Position numbers and translations under genes: made by a program. Below, piece by piece: positions 2,417 to 61,705 of a stretch of 64,000 bases of DNA; positions within the stretch are counted from its first letter, which is position 1, and every line of letters begins with the position of its first letter. Origin of the DNA: Escherichia phage vB_EcoM_G9062; sequence record NC_054920.1; one strand, given 5' to 3'. Under the pieces are notes generated by a model. It had not been told where the DNA came from and ran no database searches. It saw only the letters and a program-made list of their open reading frames with translations.

Positions 2417-2447
2417 AATTATACCACATCCTTGTGGTAAAGTAAAC
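2417..2447 (-). promoter_or_regulatory. T4-type early promoter
   Basis: minus-strand GTTTAC (2447-2442), 18 nt spacer, TATAAT-like (2423-2418). Confidence 0.5.
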
Positions 2448-4267
2448 TACTGGCTCATCCATTCTTTACGAAGGTCAGCATTATCTCCCATGAGCATTTC
2501 AAAAAGCTCTTTCCAGTTCTCAGGAAGTTTAACAACATCATATACTGGGTTTTGAATCATCTCACGATATTCAGATTTTTCCAAAGAGCCAAGTCCTTTA
2601 ATATAACGGATGCTATGTTTAGGTAGAGCATCTTTGGCACTCTCATATTCAGCGACTGTATAAAACCATTCTTGTTTTTTACCAATCTGAGCGATGATTA
2701 CAGGAGTTTTGACAAAACGAATTCGTCCTTGCTCAAACAATTCTGGCCAATTACTAAAAAATCCAAGCAGAGAAGGATAAATGCTTCCTAGACCATCATG
2801 GTCAGCATCAGTCATAATAGCAATATTATGATAATTCAAGTTTTCAGCTTTTTCACCGAGAACTAATCCAGTGATTGCGCAAATATCAAATAGTTCTTTG
2901 TTTTTAAGCATATCTGCATAAGACATACCCCAACTGTTGAGAACTTTACCGCGCAATGGATAACCACCGTGAAGTTCTTTATCACGAACATCAATAAGAT
3001 ATCCGATAGCCGAATCACCCTCAGTCAAGAAAAGAGTAGTGTCAGCATCTTTACCACAAAGATTCGCTTTGATATGTTTATGAACCTTAGCTTTAGAAGC
3101 CTTTTTAGCTGCTTTAGTTTCTGCTGCTTTTTCTGCCGCCAATTTACGAGCCAAAGCAGCTTCAATAATCGGCATTAGAATTGCTTCATTATTTAGAATA
3201 GCACGTGAAATCTTTTTAGCATCAAGCTGAATATGACTACGAATTTCGCCAAATGGAGAAGTCAAACGCTCTTTAGTTTGAGAATCAAATCGCATGTTTT
3301 TCATATCACGAACAAACATAACGATAGTCAAACATTCTTTAACACGCGCTTTAGTTACATCAATTTTGAACTTACGTTTGATTTGTGGAATAAGGTCTTC
3401 ACAAATATCATCCATAACACAGTCAATGTGATGGCCACCATTCTTAGTGTGAATGTTATTGACGTATGTTAATTGACGAAAACCATCCGGTGAACGACCA
3501 ACCGCAATAGAACAATTTTCTTGTTCTTGAACAATAGCATGCTCATCATATTGGCGTGCATATTTCTTAAAATTGCCCTGAACCTTTTTACCATTAAAGG
3601 TAAATTGAATATCAGGATAAACAACAGCAAGTGTCTGGAGACGATCTAATGTAATGTCAAGATAAACTTGAGATAATTCATTAGTTTCAAATGACATAAA
3701 ATCTGGAATGAAAGTAACACGAGTTCCTTTCCATTTTCCAGGAATAGTTTCCCATGATTTATTTTCCATGCCATTTGAACAACGAACTACAATATTATTT
3801 TGACCATCGCCAGTTTCACCGACAAACATCACAGAAAAAATGTTAGTTAAACTAGAACCAACACCATTCATACCACCGGTGACGCGTTCTTTATCATCAC
3901 CAAAGTTACCACCTGCTTTTGGAATAGTCCACGCAGCAACTGGACCAGGAATTTCTTCACCGGTAGGTGTTTTGACCATCGCTTGTGGAATACCACGACC
4001 GTTATCTTCAACTGTTACTTGATTGTTTTTAATAGTAACATTAATTTTATTTGCGAATTTAAACTTAGTACGAATACCTTCATCTACTGAGTTATCGATA
4101 ATTTCATCAATAAGCTTAACAAGACCAGGTACATACTGAACACTTTCCCATTTACCAAACAGAAAGCGCTCATGCATTTCATTAGCGGAAGAGCCAATGT
4201 ACATGCCGCTACGCTTTTTGATATGTTCAATATCGCTCAGAATTTTAATTTCATTCTTAATCATCAC
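2447..4267 (-). CDS. 39: DNA topoisomerase II large subunit, contiguous GyrB-like ATPase (606 aa)
   Basis: N-terminal GHKL ATPase motifs (GMYIGS, DNGRGIP), GyrB-like C-terminal half; single uninterrupted ORF. Confidence 0.9.
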   Translation of the reverse strand: MMIKNEIKILSDIEHIKKRSGMYIGSSANEMHERFLFGKWESVQYVPGLVKLIDEIIDNSVDEGIRTKFKFANKINVTIKNNQVTVEDNGRGIPQAMVKTPTGEEIPGPVAAWTIPKAGGNFGDDKERVTGGMNGVGSSLTNIFSVMFVGETGDGQNNIVVRCSNGMENKSWETIPGKWKGTRVTFIPDFMSFETNELSQVYLDITLDRLQTLAVVYPDIQFTFNGKKVQGNFKKYARQYDEHAIVQEQENCSIAVGRSPDGFRQLTYVNNIHTKNGGHHIDCVMDDICEDLIPQIKRKFKIDVTKARVKECLTIVMFVRDMKNMRFDSQTKERLTSPFGEIRSHIQLDAKKISRAILNNEAILMPIIEAALARKLAAEKAAETKAAKKASKAKVHKHIKANLCGKDADTTLFLTEGDSAIGYLIDVRDKELHGGYPLRGKVLNSWGMSYADMLKNKELFDICAITGLVLGEKAENLNYHNIAIMTDADHDGLGSIYPSLLGFFSNWPELFEQGRIRFVKTPVIIAQIGKKQEWFYTVAEYESAKDALPKHSIRYIKGLGSLEKSEYREMIQNPVYDVVKLPENWKELFEMLMGDNADLRKEWMSQ

Positions 4268-5152: not shown

Positions 5153-5566
5153 TTATTCCTTAAAGTGAGCTTTCAACATCTGATACAAGGACCATGCCTG
5201 TTCATCATTTTCAATAGTAACTTTCATTACAGGGAATTTAGATTGATCAGTTATCGGTGCAGATTCTTCCTGCTCTTCAGCTGCCTGGTATGGATTTTCA
5301 ACTTCATTAAAGAATTCAGCTTCATTCGATGAAAGCCAAATAAAATCTTCATCCAAAATATCTTTACCAGAAGATAGTACTAAATTTCCAGCAAATGACA
5401 TAATTTTAATAGGACGCCCAAGAGCATCCACATCTAAAATTTTAAAAGGATGCATACCTAAACGGCGTGCATAGATTCCGTTATCAGTATGGTCTTTAAT
5501 AAAATTTTCTTGAGCTTGTTTATTTTTAAATTGATACCATTTATTAACTTCAAATTTAATAGCCAT
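5153..5566 (-). CDS. hypothetical protein (137 aa)
   Basis: minus-strand ORF, acidic C-terminal half. Confidence 0.5.
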
Positions 5567-5781
5567 TAATAAATTTCCTTCCAGTAAGTTGTACCATCTT
5601 CAGTGATTTCACGAAATACACCGTAAATTGGTTGTTTATCCCCAACCTTTTCATACACATAAACCGAAGTCAAGTGAGTAAACTTAGCAGTGTGTTCCTT
5701 TTGAACTACTACCAAATCTGGATCGAATAACACATCTTCAAATTCGTCATTAGTGCAGTTCTGAACAATTTTACGTTTCAT
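5566..5781 (-). CDS. hypothetical protein (71 aa)
   Basis: minus-strand ORF, start overlaps stop of upstream gene. Confidence 0.5.
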
Positions 5782-5880
5782 TACAATTTCCTCGTTAATT
5801 GAACATTGGAGCGATGCGTTTCAGAAGAGTAGCAGCACCTTTGGCAAATTTTCCATTTTATTCTCCAAATTATTTTCTAT

Positions 5881-5923
5881 ATCAGTAGTTGATATTGATA
5901 TAGTACCATAATCAACTACTGAT
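5881..5923. repeat. perfect 13-bp inverted repeat with 17-nt spacer
   Basis: atcagtagttgat (5881-5893) and its reverse complement atcaactactgat (5911-5923). Confidence 0.7.
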
Positions 5924-5953
5924 GTATATAGTTTTATGAAAAAATTTTAAACT

Positions 5954-6445
5954 TTATGCATAACGAGCTTTGCTGTAGTGTTTAATCCAACTTTCAGGAA
6001 TGACTTTGTATGTTCCTAAAAATACCGCGTTGTATAACTTAACGCCATCTTCTACCCATTGATCAGTAATGTATGCACACATAGCGCGAGTACGCCGAGG
6101 AAGTGGTTGTCCACCTTCGATAAATTCAAACTCATAAGGAGCAATGAACTTAATAGCTTGACCGAGTTTCCACTTAAAGTCTACACCTACATGCGAAGTA
6201 TCAATCGTTTCAATTCCTTTAGCGGGAACAGCTTTCAAAAACGCAGATTCAAGAAATTTCGCGCGAACATAACCAAACTGAGGTTTAGACTTTCCATCTT
6301 TAGGAATGATACGCACTTTTACTTCAGAATCTTCATCTTTAACGCCGTGTTTAAGCTGAATGCTTACAATTTCGACCAATTTTCCTGCTGCTTTAGAACG
6401 GGATTTATCAGATACACGAGCAATTTCACCAATATTAATAATCAT
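5954..6445 (-). CDS. motB: MotB-like protein (163 aa)
   Basis: length and position match T4 motB as I recall it; shares C-terminal motif with the next ORF. Confidence 0.45.
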   Translation of the reverse strand: MIINIGEIARVSDKSRSKAAGKLVEIVSIQLKHGVKDEDSEVKVRIIPKDGKSKPQFGYVRAKFLESAFLKAVPAKGIETIDTSHVGVDFKWKLGQAIKFIAPYEFEFIEGGQPLPRRTRAMCAYITDQWVEDGVKLYNAVFLGTYKVIPESWIKHYSKARYA

Positions 6446-7609: not shown

Positions 7610-7627
7610 CTAACCGAGGAAGTAAAC
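7597..7627 (-). promoter_or_regulatory. T4-type early promoter
   Basis: minus-strand GTTTAC (7627-7622), 18 nt spacer, TATTAT. Confidence 0.5.
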
Positions 7628-9050: not shown

Positions 9051-10370
9051 TCACACATAAAATACGTCATAACGACCACGGGTAACACCAACATAAAGAA
9101 GTTGTTGAGCCAATTCAGCATCTGCATAATGAATACAAGGTGTATAGATGAAAGCACGGTCTACAGACATACCCTGCGCTTTATGGAATGTTGATGCAGG
9201 AAGTGCTTTCACTTTACTAAACTGTGATTTAGCATCCCAAAAATCACTCCATGGAGCTTTTCCACCCTTATTCCAGTTTTTATAAGTTTCTGCTGTTTTA
9301 CCTAAAAATAGGTTAAACTTATATAGCTCTTCATCAGATGAAATTATTTTAATCTTTTCACGATAATATTCATCATCGCCGTAAGTTTCTACTGTTAAAT
9401 CCCAATGACGAATTAAGTATTCTCCAGAAACACCACGAGCTTTAACAAATGTTGATGTATACTCTGCTTCTATAATACGAACTAATTGTCCGTTATTAAA
9501 AATAATTTCTGACACAGGCTTTCCATCAATTTTATATGTTTTAATTAATGGTTCCTGCATTACAATAATTTCACCGACAATAAAATCTTTATCAGTTTCA
9601 AAAATCTTTTTACGAATAATGCTATTTAACTTGTCAACAGATTTATTCGTAAATGCCATTACGCGATTTTCAAACAAATCATCTAGAGATTTGACGATTG
9701 AAAAATAATTTACCATAAAATCGCGTAAAGCGGTATCACCAGTAAATCCACGTACTCCATGCCCGTCAACAACTTTATCATAAATCCACTTACCGTTACG
9801 AACGTCAGTAGCTACATCAATAATAGGAGCATTACTGCGTTTAACTTCAGTGAGTTCACACTGATAAAAATCTTTATGTGTAAAGAATGGACTGATATAA
9901 GCAGTATTTTCTCCTGGATCAACAGGTCTAATTTGCTTATTATCACCTATTCCAATTATAGTACACCAAGGTGGAATAGTTGAAAGCAGAATTTTAAATA
10001 GCTTTCTATCATACATTGACACTTCGTCGCAGATTAATACCCTGCATTTAGCTAAATCTGGTACTTCCTTCTGTTCAAAAAGAACGTTTTCTTCATACGT
10101 AACTGGGTTAATTTTAAGAATACTGTGAATAGTACTCGCTTCTTTCCCCGACAGTTTTGAAAGAATCTTTTTAGCTGCATGTGTAGGAGCTGCTAAAATA
10201 ATACCAGTTTCACCCGTAGATATTAAAGCTTCAATGATGAACTTAGTAAGAGTAGTCTTACCAGTACCAGCAGGTCCATTAATAGTTACATGATGTTTCT
10301 TTTCTTTAATAGCCCTCATAACGATGTTAAAGGCATTTTTCTGGCCTTCTGTCAAATCATCAAATGTCAT
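9051..10370 (-). CDS. dda: Dda DNA helicase, SF1 (439 aa)
   Basis: 439 aa as T4 Dda; Walker A GPAGTGKTT; Walker B LICDEVSM. Confidence 0.9.
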   Translation of the reverse strand: MTFDDLTEGQKNAFNIVMRAIKEKKHHVTINGPAGTGKTTLTKFIIEALISTGETGIILAAPTHAAKKILSKLSGKEASTIHSILKINPVTYEENVLFEQKEVPDLAKCRVLICDEVSMYDRKLFKILLSTIPPWCTIIGIGDNKQIRPVDPGENTAYISPFFTHKDFYQCELTEVKRSNAPIIDVATDVRNGKWIYDKVVDGHGVRGFTGDTALRDFMVNYFSIVKSLDDLFENRVMAFTNKSVDKLNSIIRKKIFETDKDFIVGEIIVMQEPLIKTYKIDGKPVSEIIFNNGQLVRIIEAEYTSTFVKARGVSGEYLIRHWDLTVETYGDDEYYREKIKIISSDEELYKFNLFLGKTAETYKNWNKGGKAPWSDFWDAKSQFSKVKALPASTFHKAQGMSVDRAFIYTPCIHYADAELAQQLLYVGVTRGRYDVFYV

Positions 10371-25939: not shown

Positions 25940-26176
25940 TCAAATGCAAGTAGTAATTACTCCAGTAGTGCTTATGCAGGTATTACCCATTTGCACACCT
26001 AAAGATCCATTTGTATTCACATGAAGATTATCATCAATTTTAACTGATATTTTACCATTAGTGTGAATAACAGTGCTAGATTCAATCACAGGTTGAGTAT
26101 CATTTTCAACACTAACAAATGGAACTGCTGCTAATGCAACTAAACAAACTGCTAAGCATCCCATAACAATTTTCAT
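25940..26176 (-). CDS. small secreted protein (about 78 aa)
   Basis: likely start MKIVMGCLAVCLVALAA at 26176 after SD GGAG; the longer track ORF runs into the promoter. Confidence 0.5.
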   Translation of the reverse strand: MKIVMGCLAVCLVALAAVPFVSVENDTQPVIESSTVIHTNGKISVKIDDNLHVNTNGSLGVQMGNTCISTTGVITTCI

Positions 26177-26212
26177 TTTATTCTCCAAATCCGTATCAGT
26201 AGTTGATAGTTG

Positions 26213-26243
26213 TATAGTACCATGGAAGAACATTCTTGTAAAC
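26213..26243 (-). promoter_or_regulatory. T4-type early promoter with conserved leader
   Basis: minus-strand GTTTAC (26243-26238), 16 nt spacer, GGTACTATAC, then conserved AACTATCAAC leader. Confidence 0.55.
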
Positions 26244-26330
26244 AGTTTTGTGAAAATTTTTTAGGGAATTCTAAATGTCCAGAATCATCTGTTTTTCATA
26301 AGTATAGATTTATATTACTTGTATGAAAAA

Positions 26331-32693: not shown

Positions 32694-34376
32694 TTAAACC
32701 ATTACAGTAAATCGACCAACTTTCTTCATTTGAAGATGCTGACCGTATGCTTGCGGGTCATGGTCTCTATGTGAAATAACAAAAACGTTAGTATTTTTTA
32801 AACTATCTAAAATAGTTGAAATAGCTTTTACACCTTCAACGTCGGTCGCTGAATCAAAAACTTCGTCAAGAATTAACGTGTTTATTTTAACACCTGAAAC
32901 TTTTTCAGCAATATCACGCCAAGTAAATAAAAGAGCAATATCAATTCGTGCTTTTTCACCTTGACTGAATGAAGCATAACTAAAATCTTCGCGACCACGG
33001 GATTTAATTGTCTCATTAAATTCTTCATCTAATGTAAACACATAATCCGCTTCCATTATTTTAAGATAATGGTTAATCTGCTTATTAAATAATGGAATGT
33101 ACTTTTTAATAATAGCACCTTTAATACCAGAATCTTTGAGCATATCAGTCAAAATTCCTCGGTGGTATTTTTCCATTACTAAATTAGTTTTTGTCTTAAC
33201 AATTTTATCAAGTTCTTCTTGAAGCAGTGCTATTTCATCAGCATGGTCAATAAACTCAGAAGATGCTTTTTCTATAGCCGCTTTAACCTTTTTAGCTTTA
33301 TCTACTGCTGCGATCAGAGATTGCTTTTTATTGCGAATATCATTTGCTAACGACTGTTGGGTTTTAATATTATCTCGGTATTCATCAACAAGAACTTTTA
33401 AATTATCACGATGTGTTGAAAGCTGTTCAAACGAATGCGTACATTCAGAAACTTTATCTTTAATTTTAGAAACAACTTTATCACCGGAACTCAATTGTGA
33501 CAAACAGGTTGGACATAATCCACCTTCGTGATACATATTAATGACTTTATTATACGAGTCAATTTTTGATTTAATTAAAACTGCTTCTTGACCGATTTTA
33601 TTAAATGCATCAGTCGGGTCTTCATCTAAAACAATATTAACTAATCTTTCATTAGCTTCTTCTATTTCCGATTTTAGCGTTCTAGCTTCTTTTGCCAAAT
33701 CATCATACATATTTTGCAGACGAGTAAGATTGTCACCCGTTAATTTTTTCTGGCGTTCAACGTTATCATTATATATTTTAATTTGTTGGATAATACTATC
33801 TTTTTTAACGTCAAGCACTTGGTTTTGTGAATTTAATTCACGTATTAGTGCTTTATTAAGCTTATCCATTTCAGCTAATGTTCCTACCTCAAGCAGGTCT
33901 TCCACAAGCTTTCTTCGCGCAGGGGTCGACAAACCCATGAAAGGGGTATACCCTGCTGTACCAAGGACAACAATCTGCTTGAAACTGGCATATGACATTC
34001 CGATAAGCTGTTCAAATTCTGCTTGGAAATCTTTACTGCTGGCAGATTCATTAAGACGTGTACCGTTAACGGTGATTTCAAAAACGTTCGGTTTTTGTCC
34101 TCTTTTGATATAGTACTTTTTCTCATCATATTCCATCCACAGTTCAACTAAAAGTTCTTTCTTATTTGTGCTGTTTATTAATTGACCTTTCTTTACATCA
34201 CGAAATGGCTTGCCAAAAAGCCCAAATGTGATGGCTTCTAACATAGTAGACTTACCACCGCCATTTCGTCCAGTAATAAGAGTTTTTTGAACCTTATCTA
34301 ATTGAATGTCAATAGGATTTCCACCTACTGACATTATATTTTGATACCTAACTCGGTTTAGTTTAAAATTCTTCAC
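32694..34376 (-). CDS. 46: recombination nuclease subunit gp46, Rad50/SbcC-like ATPase (560 aa)
   Basis: Walker A GRNGGGKST; long coiled coil with CPTC zinc hook; C-terminal LILDEVFD. Confidence 0.9.
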   Translation of the reverse strand: MKNFKLNRVRYQNIMSVGGNPIDIQLDKVQKTLITGRNGGGKSTMLEAITFGLFGKPFRDVKKGQLINSTNKKELLVELWMEYDEKKYYIKRGQKPNVFEITVNGTRLNESASSKDFQAEFEQLIGMSYASFKQIVVLGTAGYTPFMGLSTPARRKLVEDLLEVGTLAEMDKLNKALIRELNSQNQVLDVKKDSIIQQIKIYNDNVERQKKLTGDNLTRLQNMYDDLAKEARTLKSEIEEANERLVNIVLDEDPTDAFNKIGQEAVLIKSKIDSYNKVINMYHEGGLCPTCLSQLSSGDKVVSKIKDKVSECTHSFEQLSTHRDNLKVLVDEYRDNIKTQQSLANDIRNKKQSLIAAVDKAKKVKAAIEKASSEFIDHADEIALLQEELDKIVKTKTNLVMEKYHRGILTDMLKDSGIKGAIIKKYIPLFNKQINHYLKIMEADYVFTLDEEFNETIKSRGREDFSYASFSQGEKARIDIALLFTWRDIAEKVSGVKINTLILDEVFDSATDVEGVKAISTILDSLKNTNVFVISHRDHDPQAYGQHLQMKKVGRFTVMV

Positions 34377-51923: not shown

Positions 51924-51950
51924 TTTGTGTTCCTCCGTAGTTGATAGTTG

Positions 51951-51981
51951 TATAGTACCACAGAGGAACAGTCTTGTAAAC
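51951..51981 (-). promoter_or_regulatory. T4-type early promoter with conserved leader
   Basis: minus-strand GTTTAC (51981-51976), 16 nt spacer, GGTACTATAC, AACTATCAAC leader. Confidence 0.55.
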
Positions 51982-53690: not shown

Positions 53691-54007
53691 TGATTCTTCT
53701 CCAAATAAGTTTCGATAATTTTCTGAGCGAGATAAACTGCATTATCTTCAGTTGCATCTTCTAAGAAACTTTCAAAACACTCTGAAATTTCTTCTGTATC
53801 AATCAACTTTTTTACTTCAATTGGTGTAATTTTCATTTTGTTTTTCCGTTTAAGTGTTTGTTTTGATAGTTGTATAGTACCATAAAGCTTTATGCTTGTA
53901 AACAATTTTGTGAAAAATTTTTGAAATAAAAAAAGGGAGCCCGAAGGCTCCCTATCATTTATAATAACTTCGGTGGTTTTCAAGATAAACCCTCTCAAGG
54001 AAGTCAT
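53687..54007 (-). CDS. hypothetical protein (106 aa or shorter)
   Basis: minus-strand ORF; start uncertain. Confidence 0.4.
   Translation of the reverse strand: MTSLRGFILKTTEVIINDREPSGSLFLFQKFFTKLFTSIKLYGTIQLSKQTLKRKNKMKITPIEVKKLIDTEEISECFESFLEDATEDNAVYLAQKIIETYLEKNQ
53873..53903 (-). promoter_or_regulatory. T4-type early promoter with conserved leader
   Basis: minus-strand GTTTAC (53903-53898), spacer, GGTACTATAC, AACTATCAAA leader. Confidence 0.5.
53935..53952 (-). terminator. intercistronic hairpin, C(UUCG)G loop
   Basis: plus gggagcccgaaggctccc. Confidence 0.45.
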
Positions 54008-56660: not shown

Positions 56661-56688
56661 CTATACCATAACCTTGTCAACTTGTAAA
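56661..56688 (-). promoter_or_regulatory. T4-type early promoter
   Basis: minus-strand GTTTAC (56688-56683), 15 nt spacer, GGTATAG. Confidence 0.45.
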
Positions 56689-57290: not shown

Positions 57291-57487
57291 GCCATATGAG
57301 TTGCAGCTTCATCACACATATCATAACGTTTCTTAAGAAGTTCTACAAGTTCTTCACTAGTAACTTCATCCATGTCGACGAAAAAATCACCATTAATGAT
57401 GACGTAGATATTTCCTTCTTGATTGAGTGCTTCAATTTTCATGATGTTCTCCTCTTTATCCGATAGTTGTATAGTACCACAGCTCAA
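57254..57487 (-). CDS. hypothetical protein (77 aa or shorter)
   Basis: minus-strand ORF downstream of promoter. Confidence 0.4.
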
Positions 57488-61673: not shown

Positions 61674-61705
61674 AAAATTATACCACAGTCAAGAGGAAAA
61701 GTAAA
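61674..61705 (-). promoter_or_regulatory. T4-type early promoter
   Basis: minus-strand GTTTAC (61705-61700), spacer, GGTATAAT. Confidence 0.5.

Follow-up and report, generated by a model that had tools for sequence, protein, structure and literature searches.

Introduction

Arbiol et al. (2010) defined PeSLs (promoter-early stem-loops), in phages RB49 and phi1, as intergenic cassettes in which an A/T-rich tract is combined with an early promoter of sigma-70-like type, with a stem-loop, and with the Shine-Dalgarno sequence and ATG of the next gene. The position of the stem separates five subclasses, and most often it lies between -35 and -10 or overlaps -10 (PMC2839356). A terminator or attenuator role was proposed there, and one stem-loop cut expression of a downstream lacZ about as much as rrnB T1 (PMC2839356). 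According to Comeau et al. (2014), PeSLs also occur in the PST/T4 group, with TTTACW-N17-TAYWAT promoters, and are linked to insertions and deletions (indels) (PMC4122927). One crossover was mapped within a stem-loop, and PeSLs were reported near indels (PMC2839356; PMC4122927). Here we describe a locus of this kind in Escherichia phage vB_EcoM_G9062 (NC_054920.1): the 172-bp gap between motB and cef, in which a perfect 13-bp inverted repeat surrounds the -10 box of a putative early promoter.

A second point of comparison is T4 gene e. In this gene and related lysis genes, a hairpin represses translation of the read-through RNA and an internal promoter yields transcripts with a free ribosome-binding site (PMC3014915). 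Intrinsic terminators, with their stable RNA hairpin in an intergenic position downstream of a gene, are a third.

The window, by which we mean the whole 64,000-nucleotide stretch analysed, is the first 64 kb of a T4-like phage of the genus Tequatrovirus, and its genes are laid out as in Yersinia phage PST and T4. Escherichia phage vB_EcoM_G29 is 100% identical to it, with identical coordinates. The local genes all lie on the minus strand, in the order motB, cef, goF, 39.2 and gene 39. An earlier note on this DNA had proposed that the repeat was a decayed promoter turned terminator, a processing site or a protein-binding site.

Results

A putative early promoter upstream of cef is embraced by a perfect inverted repeat

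The features of the locus are listed in the sense direction.

6518-6490, minus: strong predicted motB promoter (promoter scan)
5954..6445, minus: motB, the upstream gene, stop codon 5956-5954; its read-through RNA would hold both hairpin arms
5931..5953, minus: A/T-rich upstream tract (agtttaaaattttttcataaaac), which adjoins the stop codon of motB, in the position of an UP element
5923..5928, minus: -35-like hexamer TATACA, exactly 17 bp upstream of TACTAT
5911..5923, minus: hairpin 5' arm (sense ATCAGTAGTTGAT), which fills the -35/-10 spacer, upstream of the likely +1
5894..5910, minus: hairpin loop, 17 nt, holding TGG and TACTAT, with an extra 5-bp mini-helix in the sense RNA
5908-5906, minus: extended -10 element TGG, inside the loop
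5905-5900, minus: -10 hexamer TACTAT, inside the loop
5881..5893, minus: hairpin 3' arm (sense ATCAACTACTGAT), the 13 nt with which RNA begun at this promoter would open
5863..5866, minus: Shine-Dalgarno GGAG of a remnant open reading frame (ORF), outside the main hairpin
5856, minus: ATG of the remnant ORF, downstream of GGAG
5821..5856, minus: 11-codon ORF, MENLPKVLLLF and a stop, ATG at 5856, stop codon 5823-5821
5566..5781, minus: cef, the first intact gene behind the cef promoter; goF, 39.2 and further genes come next

We compared the promoter with the published PeSL form TTTACW-N17-TAYWAT, with the T4-type -35 consensus TTTACW and the sigma-70 consensus TTGACA as references. The cef site reads TATACA-N17-TACTAT, in which the -10 box and the spacing fit and the -35 box has one mismatch. 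Measured against the T4 early promoter (UP-like tract, GTTTAC, TGn, -10 and 17 bp), it has everything except the consensus -35, in place of which it carries ATATAC. Four GTTTACA-type early promoters of the window, and the T4 motA early promoter (P_E motA, Z48569), can be aligned with the cef site base for base. It shares with motA TGGTACTAT, the leader start ACAACTATCAACTACTGATA, the A/T tract and the 17-bp spacing; TGGTACTAT and ACAACTATCAACTACTGATA are also common to the four window sites, and TGGTACTAT is identical to the -10 annotated by the depositors of the motA record. The cef site differs from motA in two respects: its -35 is TATACA rather than TTTACA, and its spacer is replaced by the reverse complement of the leader start. 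A near-identical A/T tract precedes promoters 26242, 53902 and 41121 as well as T4 motA, and its position and the published architecture of T4 early promoters (PMC2988021) suggest that it may act as an UP element. The earlier note had the -35 box GTTTAC missing from this copy; TATACA does stand 17 bp upstream of TACTAT, behind the same A/T tract that 26202 has.

The transcript would probably start at A5893 (about 6594 on the minus strand of T4 NC_000866), 7 nt past the -10 box and the first base of the 3' arm. This base lies in a TATCA motif that recurs, equally spaced, in many promoters of the window and of other genera. A (C)TATCAA motif also occurs about 5-11 nt after the -10 box at many promoters in the window and at loci L008-L051 from several genera, and it often closes the 3' arm (..CCCTATCAAAAC). 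A conserved signal for the start site or the 5' end is one possible meaning. On the plus strand, inspection by eye and a scan found no promoter with workable spacing inside the palindrome.

The inverted repeat itself, ATCAGTAGTTGAT / ATCAACTACTGAT at 5881-5893 / 5911-5923 with a 17-nt loop, is the longest perfect one in the window at loops of 3-30 nt, and repeats of at least 13 bp arose in only 2% of windows simulated with a first-order Markov model. Only two other perfect inverted repeats of at least 11 bp occur at these loop lengths, at 33051-33097 and 9609-9653; each has 11 bp, their loops are 25 and 23 nt, and about one repeat of such size is expected by chance.

Folding energies bear out a real, non-chance hairpin. 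The 43-mer at 5881-5923 folds at -19.4 kcal/mol as sense RNA (z -6.1), at -16.4 as antisense RNA and at -11.1 kcal/mol as DNA (z -6.4). With a flanking 5-bp extension and the inner mini-helix, about 22 bp are stacked in all. In the minimum-energy 140-nt fold of the read-through RNA (5821-5960, minus), a U-run of the upstream tract (UUUUUCA) pairs with the Shine-Dalgarno UGGAGAA and closes over the main hairpin; this pairing has an ensemble frequency of 0.008, is absent from the centroid and may be meaningless.

The locus resembles published PeSLs in most of its parts

Like a PeSL, the cef site is intergenic, lying between the upstream stop codon (5956-5954) and a Shine-Dalgarno sequence (5866-5863) with its ATG (5856), and it has an A/T-rich tract (5953-5931) and a putative sigma-70-type early promoter with N17 spacing. 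Its stem-loop occupies one of the five positions given by Arbiol et al., between -35 and -10 or overlapping -10 (PMC2839356). As with PeSLs, the arrangement is repeated around the early region (a 21-mer core at five sites, and 18 promoters of which about half have embracing stems), and an indel of 208 bp between close relatives lies next to it; the repeats at the indel junction are not PeSL sequences. The PeSLs of the T4/PST group, as Comeau et al. present them, have short AGNA-loop-TCNT stems just upstream of the promoter (PMC4122927). The cef-site stem is unlike these: it has 13 bp, is A/U-rich and wraps the -10 box, as in the subclass from RB49 and phi1. Apart from the single -35 mismatch with the published TTTACW, every other sequence-level PeSL feature is present.

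The likeness to the gene e type lies in a promoter placed within the 5'-strand region of an RNA structure, so that only upstream transcripts fold. There the promoter is late and the 3' strand is the ribosome-binding site. At the cef site, by contrast, the promoter is of the early type, the main stem ends at 5881, and its 3' arm stops 14 nt before GGAG (5866-5863), so that neither the Shine-Dalgarno sequence nor the start codon is held in the 3' strand.

The hairpin also lacks the marks of an intrinsic terminator, which would be a G/C-rich stem, a short loop and a U-tract directly after it. It has four G/C pairs in 13, a 17-nt loop and no U-tract, and a terminator scan returned nothing at the site; canonical terminators with a G/C stem, short loop and T-run are present elsewhere in the window. 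In the canonical sense, the terminator suggested in the earlier note is not supported. We also considered a terminator on the antisense (plus) strand, where the tail is GUAUAUAGUUUUAUG, and rejected it as the main reading: other genera have not conserved such U-rich tails on the antisense strand, and the promoters are sense-biased.

No promoter or PeSL feature is annotated in the GenBank records of T4 (NC_000866, AF158101), in the original comC-alpha record (M89919) or in PST (KF208315), and the motB-cef intergenic region goes unmentioned in the MotB paper (PMC6070864) and in the T4 omics paper. An Rfam search of 5600-6100 at a permissive threshold gave chance-level matches only, the best with E values of 0.2 and 0.59, far under the gathering scores.

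Pairing around the -10 box is conserved across genera

Within Tequatrovirus the site is nearly invariant. Across 496 records, among them T4 and T2, identity over a 56-nt core (5875-5930) is at least 96%, whereas for the surrounding 221 bp it is 90-95% in about half of these records. Promoter and palindrome are identical in T4 and T2. In T2-type phages an intact 89-codon gene stands directly behind the cassette, with no other promoter between motB and that gene.

We then compared the region upstream of cef in viral and metagenomic contigs and in named genomes. Within the 100 nt before cef, the longest inverted repeat is in nearly all lineages one that embraces the -10 box of a T4-type promoter, but its arms are unrelated in sequence. 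The cef promoter of at least eight other genera has a stem around -10 with different arms, compensatory changes included. The orthologous -35 box sits in the same place and reads TGTACA in RB69 and L020 and TTTACT in Karam-, Moon- and Gelderlandvirus. The arms are as follows.

RB69 (Mosigvirus): GGTCTAT / ATAGACC
L037: TGTCTAT / ATAGACA
Dhakavirus-like contig: GATAGGGTA / TACCCTATC
Karamvirus-like contigs and Moonvirus KM16: AGGGCTAT / ATAGCCCT
Gelderlandvirus CGG4-1: AGGGTTAT / ATAACCCT
Klebsiella-phage lineage 1: GGTGTAGG(AG) / (CT)CCTACACC
Klebsiella-phage lineage 2: GGTAGGAGC / GCTCCTACC
Yersinia phage MHG19: TTGATGAGACCAT / ATGGTCTCATCAA, a different 13-bp stem

Covariation was scored on the alignable subset (8 distinct sequences, 8 pairs); elsewhere the register of the stem relative to -10 differs. 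In this subset both sides have changed in three of the eight pairs, and 93.8% of cells pair. The covariation score was 0.214 compared with 0.063 in shuffles, none of which reached it (0/500), and partners slid by 1-3 columns scored far lower. G.U pairs in the sense orientation occur in L011, L015 and Escherichia phage EAWsc9. This cross-genus pattern points to selection on pairing and not on the sequence of the arms, which argues strongly against chance and against a sequence-specific operator.

There were exceptions. Contig L019 has a true terminator whose stem overlaps -35, and L042 has a separate terminator upstream. In EAWsc9 (L050, Gaprivervirus), the 46-nt gap before cef holds a hairpin (GATAGGGT-tttt-GCCCTATC), and neither a -35 nor a -10 box can be recognised within its loop or around it; here the stem-loop seems to outlast the promoter.

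The -10 box and leader start recur at five sites

The earlier note had described a promoter-leader module reused at several early transcription units, and this holds. The 21-mer GTTGATAGTTGTATAGTACCA, as written on the plus strand, occurs at five sites with no more than three mismatches (5888, 26202, 51940, 53862 and 57459), all of them on that strand, and no match is expected by chance (100 shuffles). Genes and promoters lie on the minus strand, and the 21-mer is therefore to be read as its reverse complement, TGGTACTATACAACTATCAAC, that is, TGG-TACTAT-ACAACTATCAAC. In T4 this sequence makes up the motA early promoter, for which GTTTACA as -35 and TACTAT as -10 were annotated by the depositors (Z48569). 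We therefore interpret the 21-mer as the extended -10 element of T4-type early promoters together with the bases transcribed first.

In the sense-strand alignment, four of the five copies have GTTTACA 17 bp upstream of TACTAT, mostly behind an A/T-rich tract (aaaaattttcacaaaa). The leader GGAGAATAAAATG (GGAGAATAAA) follows only two copies, 5888 and 26202, and not every one as had been stated earlier; the other three continue with GGAGGAAC, ACGGAAAAAC and GAGGAGAAC. The copies other than that at the cef site are these.

26202..26222, minus: second copy of the -10/leader core, 0 mismatches, -35 TTTACA, without an embracing hairpin
51940..51960, minus: third copy, 0 mismatches; the spacer TGTTCCTC pairs with the Shine-Dalgarno GGAGGAACA
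53862..53882, minus: fourth copy, 1 mismatch; canonical terminator upstream (AGGGAGCCTTCGGGCTCCCT, then a T-run)
57459..57479, minus: fifth copy, 3 mismatches; canonical terminator upstream (AGTCTCCTTCGGGAGACT, then a T-run)

At the cef site the element had also been described as paired with its own exact reverse complement. The 13-bp stem and 17-nt loop stand, and the 21-mer as such is not paired with its complement: the 3' arm consists of its last 6 nt and 7 further leader nt, and the partner is the -35/-10 spacer. The 13-mer of the 3' arm also starts the leaders of promoter 26242 and of T4 motA, and the spacers there are not complementary to it.

The cassettes at 5881-5953 and 26176-26265 (both minus) share the upstream A/T tract, the -10 box, the first 15 leader nt and GGAGAATAAAATG, and differ only in the -35 box, the spacer and a 9-nt leader insert. 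The pair formed by the cef-proximal and 26242 cassettes looks like a cassette duplication or exchange. The ORF at 26176 encodes a 78-aa protein with a signal-peptide-like N-terminus.

Spacers complement their own leaders at other predicted early promoters

The comparison of spacers with downstream leaders covered 18 predicted promoters on the minus strand that fit the pattern TTTACW (or TATACA)-N14-15-TGn-TAnnnT. Spacers were more complementary to their own leaders (cis) than to those of other promoters (trans), with a mean longest run of 6.0 compared with 4.8 and a mean duplex energy of -12.4 compared with -7.7 kcal/mol (permutation p 2e-4, and 0.002 without the cef site). About half of the 18 promoters fold with z below -2. 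Sense folds were stronger than antisense folds (-14.0 and -9.5 kcal/mol; Wilcoxon p 3e-4), also under a composition control (p 0.014). This bias hints at action at the RNA level, because the G.U pairs involved form in sense RNA only.

The partner of the spacer is of two kinds. At promoters 5928, 56688, 20523 and 53422 the 3' arm is the leader start, and at those whose -35 lies at 61705, 51980, 7626 and 17603 it is the Shine-Dalgarno sequence. At 61705, for instance, the spacer UUUUCCUCUUGACUG pairs with the Shine-Dalgarno CAGUUAAGAGGAGA at -21.6 kcal/mol, and the hairpin at 7626 reaches -23.7 kcal/mol. At these four promoters the ribosome-binding site would be sequestered in read-through RNA and not in promoter-initiated RNA, which would make them an early-promoter version of the late-promoter trick known from T4 gene e. 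The promoters at 56688 and 20523 (minus) have near-perfect 9-bp stems around -10, GTTGACAAG/CTTGTCAAC and ACAAGACTA/TAGTCTTGT. The sequence enclosed is TGGTATAGT in each case, which suggests that the two cassettes are related.

Hairpins and canonical terminators tend not to coincide. Four promoters (57499, 53902, 17603 and 14928) have a canonical terminator with a G/C stem and T-run just upstream, and none of these has an embracing hairpin. Among the 14 without a terminator, nine have a strong hairpin (z < -2): 61705, 56688, 53422, 51980, 49008, 20523, 12826, 7626 and 5928. This mutual exclusivity is suggestive (one-sided hypergeometric about 0.04, n = 18).

The 11-codon ORF is a deletion remnant

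The earlier note had pointed to a possible 11-codon leader ORF behind the repeat. The ORF exists, and it consists of the first three codons of the 89-codon gene joined out of frame to the 3' end of that gene by a 208-bp deletion. The deletion lies between the repeats ATGGAAAA and ATGTAAAA, with its junction within ATGGAAAA (5856-5849), and the reading frame shifts, as 208 cannot be divided by 3. The C-terminus of the T2 protein, ..KFAKGAATLLKRIAPMFN and a stop, can still be read in frame +2 of the remnant. In T2 the gene (T2_009, LC348380 5816-6085) is intact between the same promoter and cef. It is also intact in RB18 and many other Tequatroviruses, and has been lost in T4, PST and the window phage, in all three of which the deletion begins 8 nt past the cassette ATG; T2 and RB18 do not have this deletion. 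The intact protein matches phrog_3720, a family of unknown function. In close relatives the remnant ORF has 4, 7, 8, 11 or 12 codons. We rejected a leader peptide on the strength of this variable length and the frameshift; the ORF is a vestige.

Elsewhere in the window, gene 39, for the topoisomerase large subunit (2447-4267, minus), is one 606-aa ORF as in the gp60+39 of PST; T4 has split genes 39 and 60.

Discussion

The reading that we favour, and consider somewhat better than an even bet as a whole, is a composite cassette of the PeSL type: an early promoter of cef carries a selected stem that punctuates the read-through transcript. Its parts differ in strength. It is quite probable that the site is an active early promoter, and that it carries a stem under selection whose formation is confined to read-through RNA or DNA; that the hairpin attenuates or terminates read-through is a tentative proposal.

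In this model a sigma-70 early promoter would serve cef-goF, and would formerly also have served the 89-codon gene that is now deleted. The inverted repeat would be built around it, with the 5' arm in the spacer, the -10 box in the loop and the 3' arm running from the probable +1. The 5' arm is spacer upstream of that +1, and therefore only RNA from upstream would hold both arms. RNA begun at the cef promoter would have the 3' arm alone and stay open, and read-through RNA from the motB promoter would fold at about -19 to -21 kcal/mol. Transcripts reading through would be punctuated by the hairpin, which would either attenuate or end them or define or protect their 3' ends, and a new transcript would begin at the embedded promoter. 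Among these roles we favour attenuation or termination of motB read-through, by analogy with the published PeSL experiment and from the exclusivity with canonical terminators.

Several results weigh against this interpretation. The stem is invariant within Tequatrovirus, and the covariation comes only from other genera, in which the register is somewhat different. Folds of 66 nt are nearly equal on the two strands (-21.1 sense, -20.9 antisense), and a stem that is all Watson-Crick cannot on its own separate selection at the RNA level from selection at the DNA level. The sense bias and the terminator exclusivity rest on 18 promoters only. With an A/U-rich stem, a large loop and the tail AUAGAAAAUAAUUU in place of a U-tract, the hairpin is not a canonical intrinsic terminator; the absent U-tract weakens termination and leaves room for action after transcription, for instance in protecting or processing the 3' end. 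On the promoter side, the -35 hexamer scores 4/6 against the sigma-70 consensus, and a simple promoter scan made no call at the cef site (8/12 matches, threshold 9/12). A literature search for T4 transcription-start and 3'-end maps found no transcript-end data for the site.

That the hairpin helps to form or process transcript 3' ends is a live possibility. In one version, with the anatomy unchanged, the read-through hairpin would let RNA polymerase pass and would block 3' exonucleases or be a double-strand-specific processing site. RegB cuts GGAG in T4 early leaders. As an exonuclease barrier the hairpin would stabilise motB mRNA after a downstream cut, for example by RegB at the GGAG 15-18 nt past the stem. 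Such a post-transcriptional role, which we rate as possible though rather unlikely, would suit the lack of a U-tract, which makes canonical termination improbable, as well as the roughly 22 stacked base pairs and the Shine-Dalgarno GGAG close behind the stem. The EAWsc9 hairpin, which stands before cef with no recognisable promoter, likewise suggests a promoter-independent function. Against it, the only experiment on a PeSL stem-loop, that of Arbiol et al., gave a terminator-like loss of downstream expression (PMC2839356), and a terminator-equivalent fits the exclusivity with canonical terminators at least as well.

Roles at the DNA level, and an operator, are less likely. The repeat might act in DNA with no RNA role, as a cruciform that modulates promoter opening or as a point of breakage and exchange in the shuffling of genes by PeSLs. 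The perfect Watson-Crick stem, with its stable fold as single-stranded DNA, and the 208-bp indel immediately downstream are compatible with this, as are the indels near PeSLs and the crossover within a stem-loop recorded in the two PeSL papers (PMC2839356; PMC4122927). We nevertheless think it improbable. It does not lead one to expect sense folds that beat antisense folds beyond composition across 18 promoters, nor the sense G.U pairs in relatives; a 13-bp A/T-rich stem with a 17-nt loop would make a poor cruciform; and flanking 8-bp direct repeats account for the 208-bp deletion, with the palindrome uninvolved.

That the palindrome is an operator, at which a dimeric DNA-binding regulator on the -10 box shuts off the cef promoter, is very unlikely. 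The dyad is perfect and centred on the -10 region, and the adjacent motB encodes a DNA-binding protein (PMC6070864), yet between genera the arms differ in sequence, in length (7-13 bp) and in register while compensatory change keeps them paired, and many other early promoters have unrelated stems of their own. Arms that diverge while still pairing point to selection on structure and not on a recognition sequence, and the protein-binding site raised in the earlier note loses its footing here.

Its principal idea, a dead promoter recycled as a terminator, fares equally poorly. The -35 region, ATATAC, does deviate from GTTTAC in two places, and the hairpin is stable. But the upstream tract, the 17-bp spacing, TGG and TACTAT are all intact and nearly invariant in about 496 genomes, and every recognition element stands at its correct spacing. 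Orthologous promoters of other genera with good -35 boxes (TGTACA or TTTACT) have the same layout and the same kind of stem, no U-tract follows, and in T2-type phages an intact gene with its Shine-Dalgarno sequence comes immediately after, without any other promoter. Finally, a functionless chance palindrome, for which one could cite the A/T-rich sequence and short arms, is effectively refuted by the comparative data: the 2% frequency in simulated windows, the invariance across the genus, and the independent stems with compensatory changes at the orthologous site in at least eight other genera.

Judged on its sequence, the feature is real, non-chance and strongly conserved, and of a kind already known as PeSL. 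What is new is the orthologous compensatory conservation across genera, together with the genome-wide complementarity between spacers and leaders; the former is not described in the available portions of Arbiol et al. (2010; PMC2839356) or Comeau et al. (2014; PMC4122927). Such compensatory changes are unusually clean evidence that the stem-loops of PeSLs are themselves selected and are not mere by-products of recombination.

A wider generalization, speculative and in our judgement more doubtful than the cassette model itself, is that the -35/-10 spacer codes half of an RNA helix and works as a general transcript-origin switch across Tevenvirinae early promoters. If this were true, promoter-initiated RNA would be open and RNA from upstream would fold over the junction, each early transcript being marked by its start. 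The 3' partner, leader start or Shine-Dalgarno sequence, would decide whether the read-through copy is ended, protected or translationally silenced, and the cef promoter would be the most conserved example of the switch, maintained by compensatory evolution.

The practical value is modest: better annotation of promoters and operons in T4-like genomes, and parts for phage engineering. For the phages themselves, the palindrome between motB and cef of the T4 type is a constrained part of a promoter cassette and not debris, and it poses a testable question in the best-studied of phages, namely whether a hairpin confined to read-through transcripts serves attenuation, 3'-end protection or translational gating.

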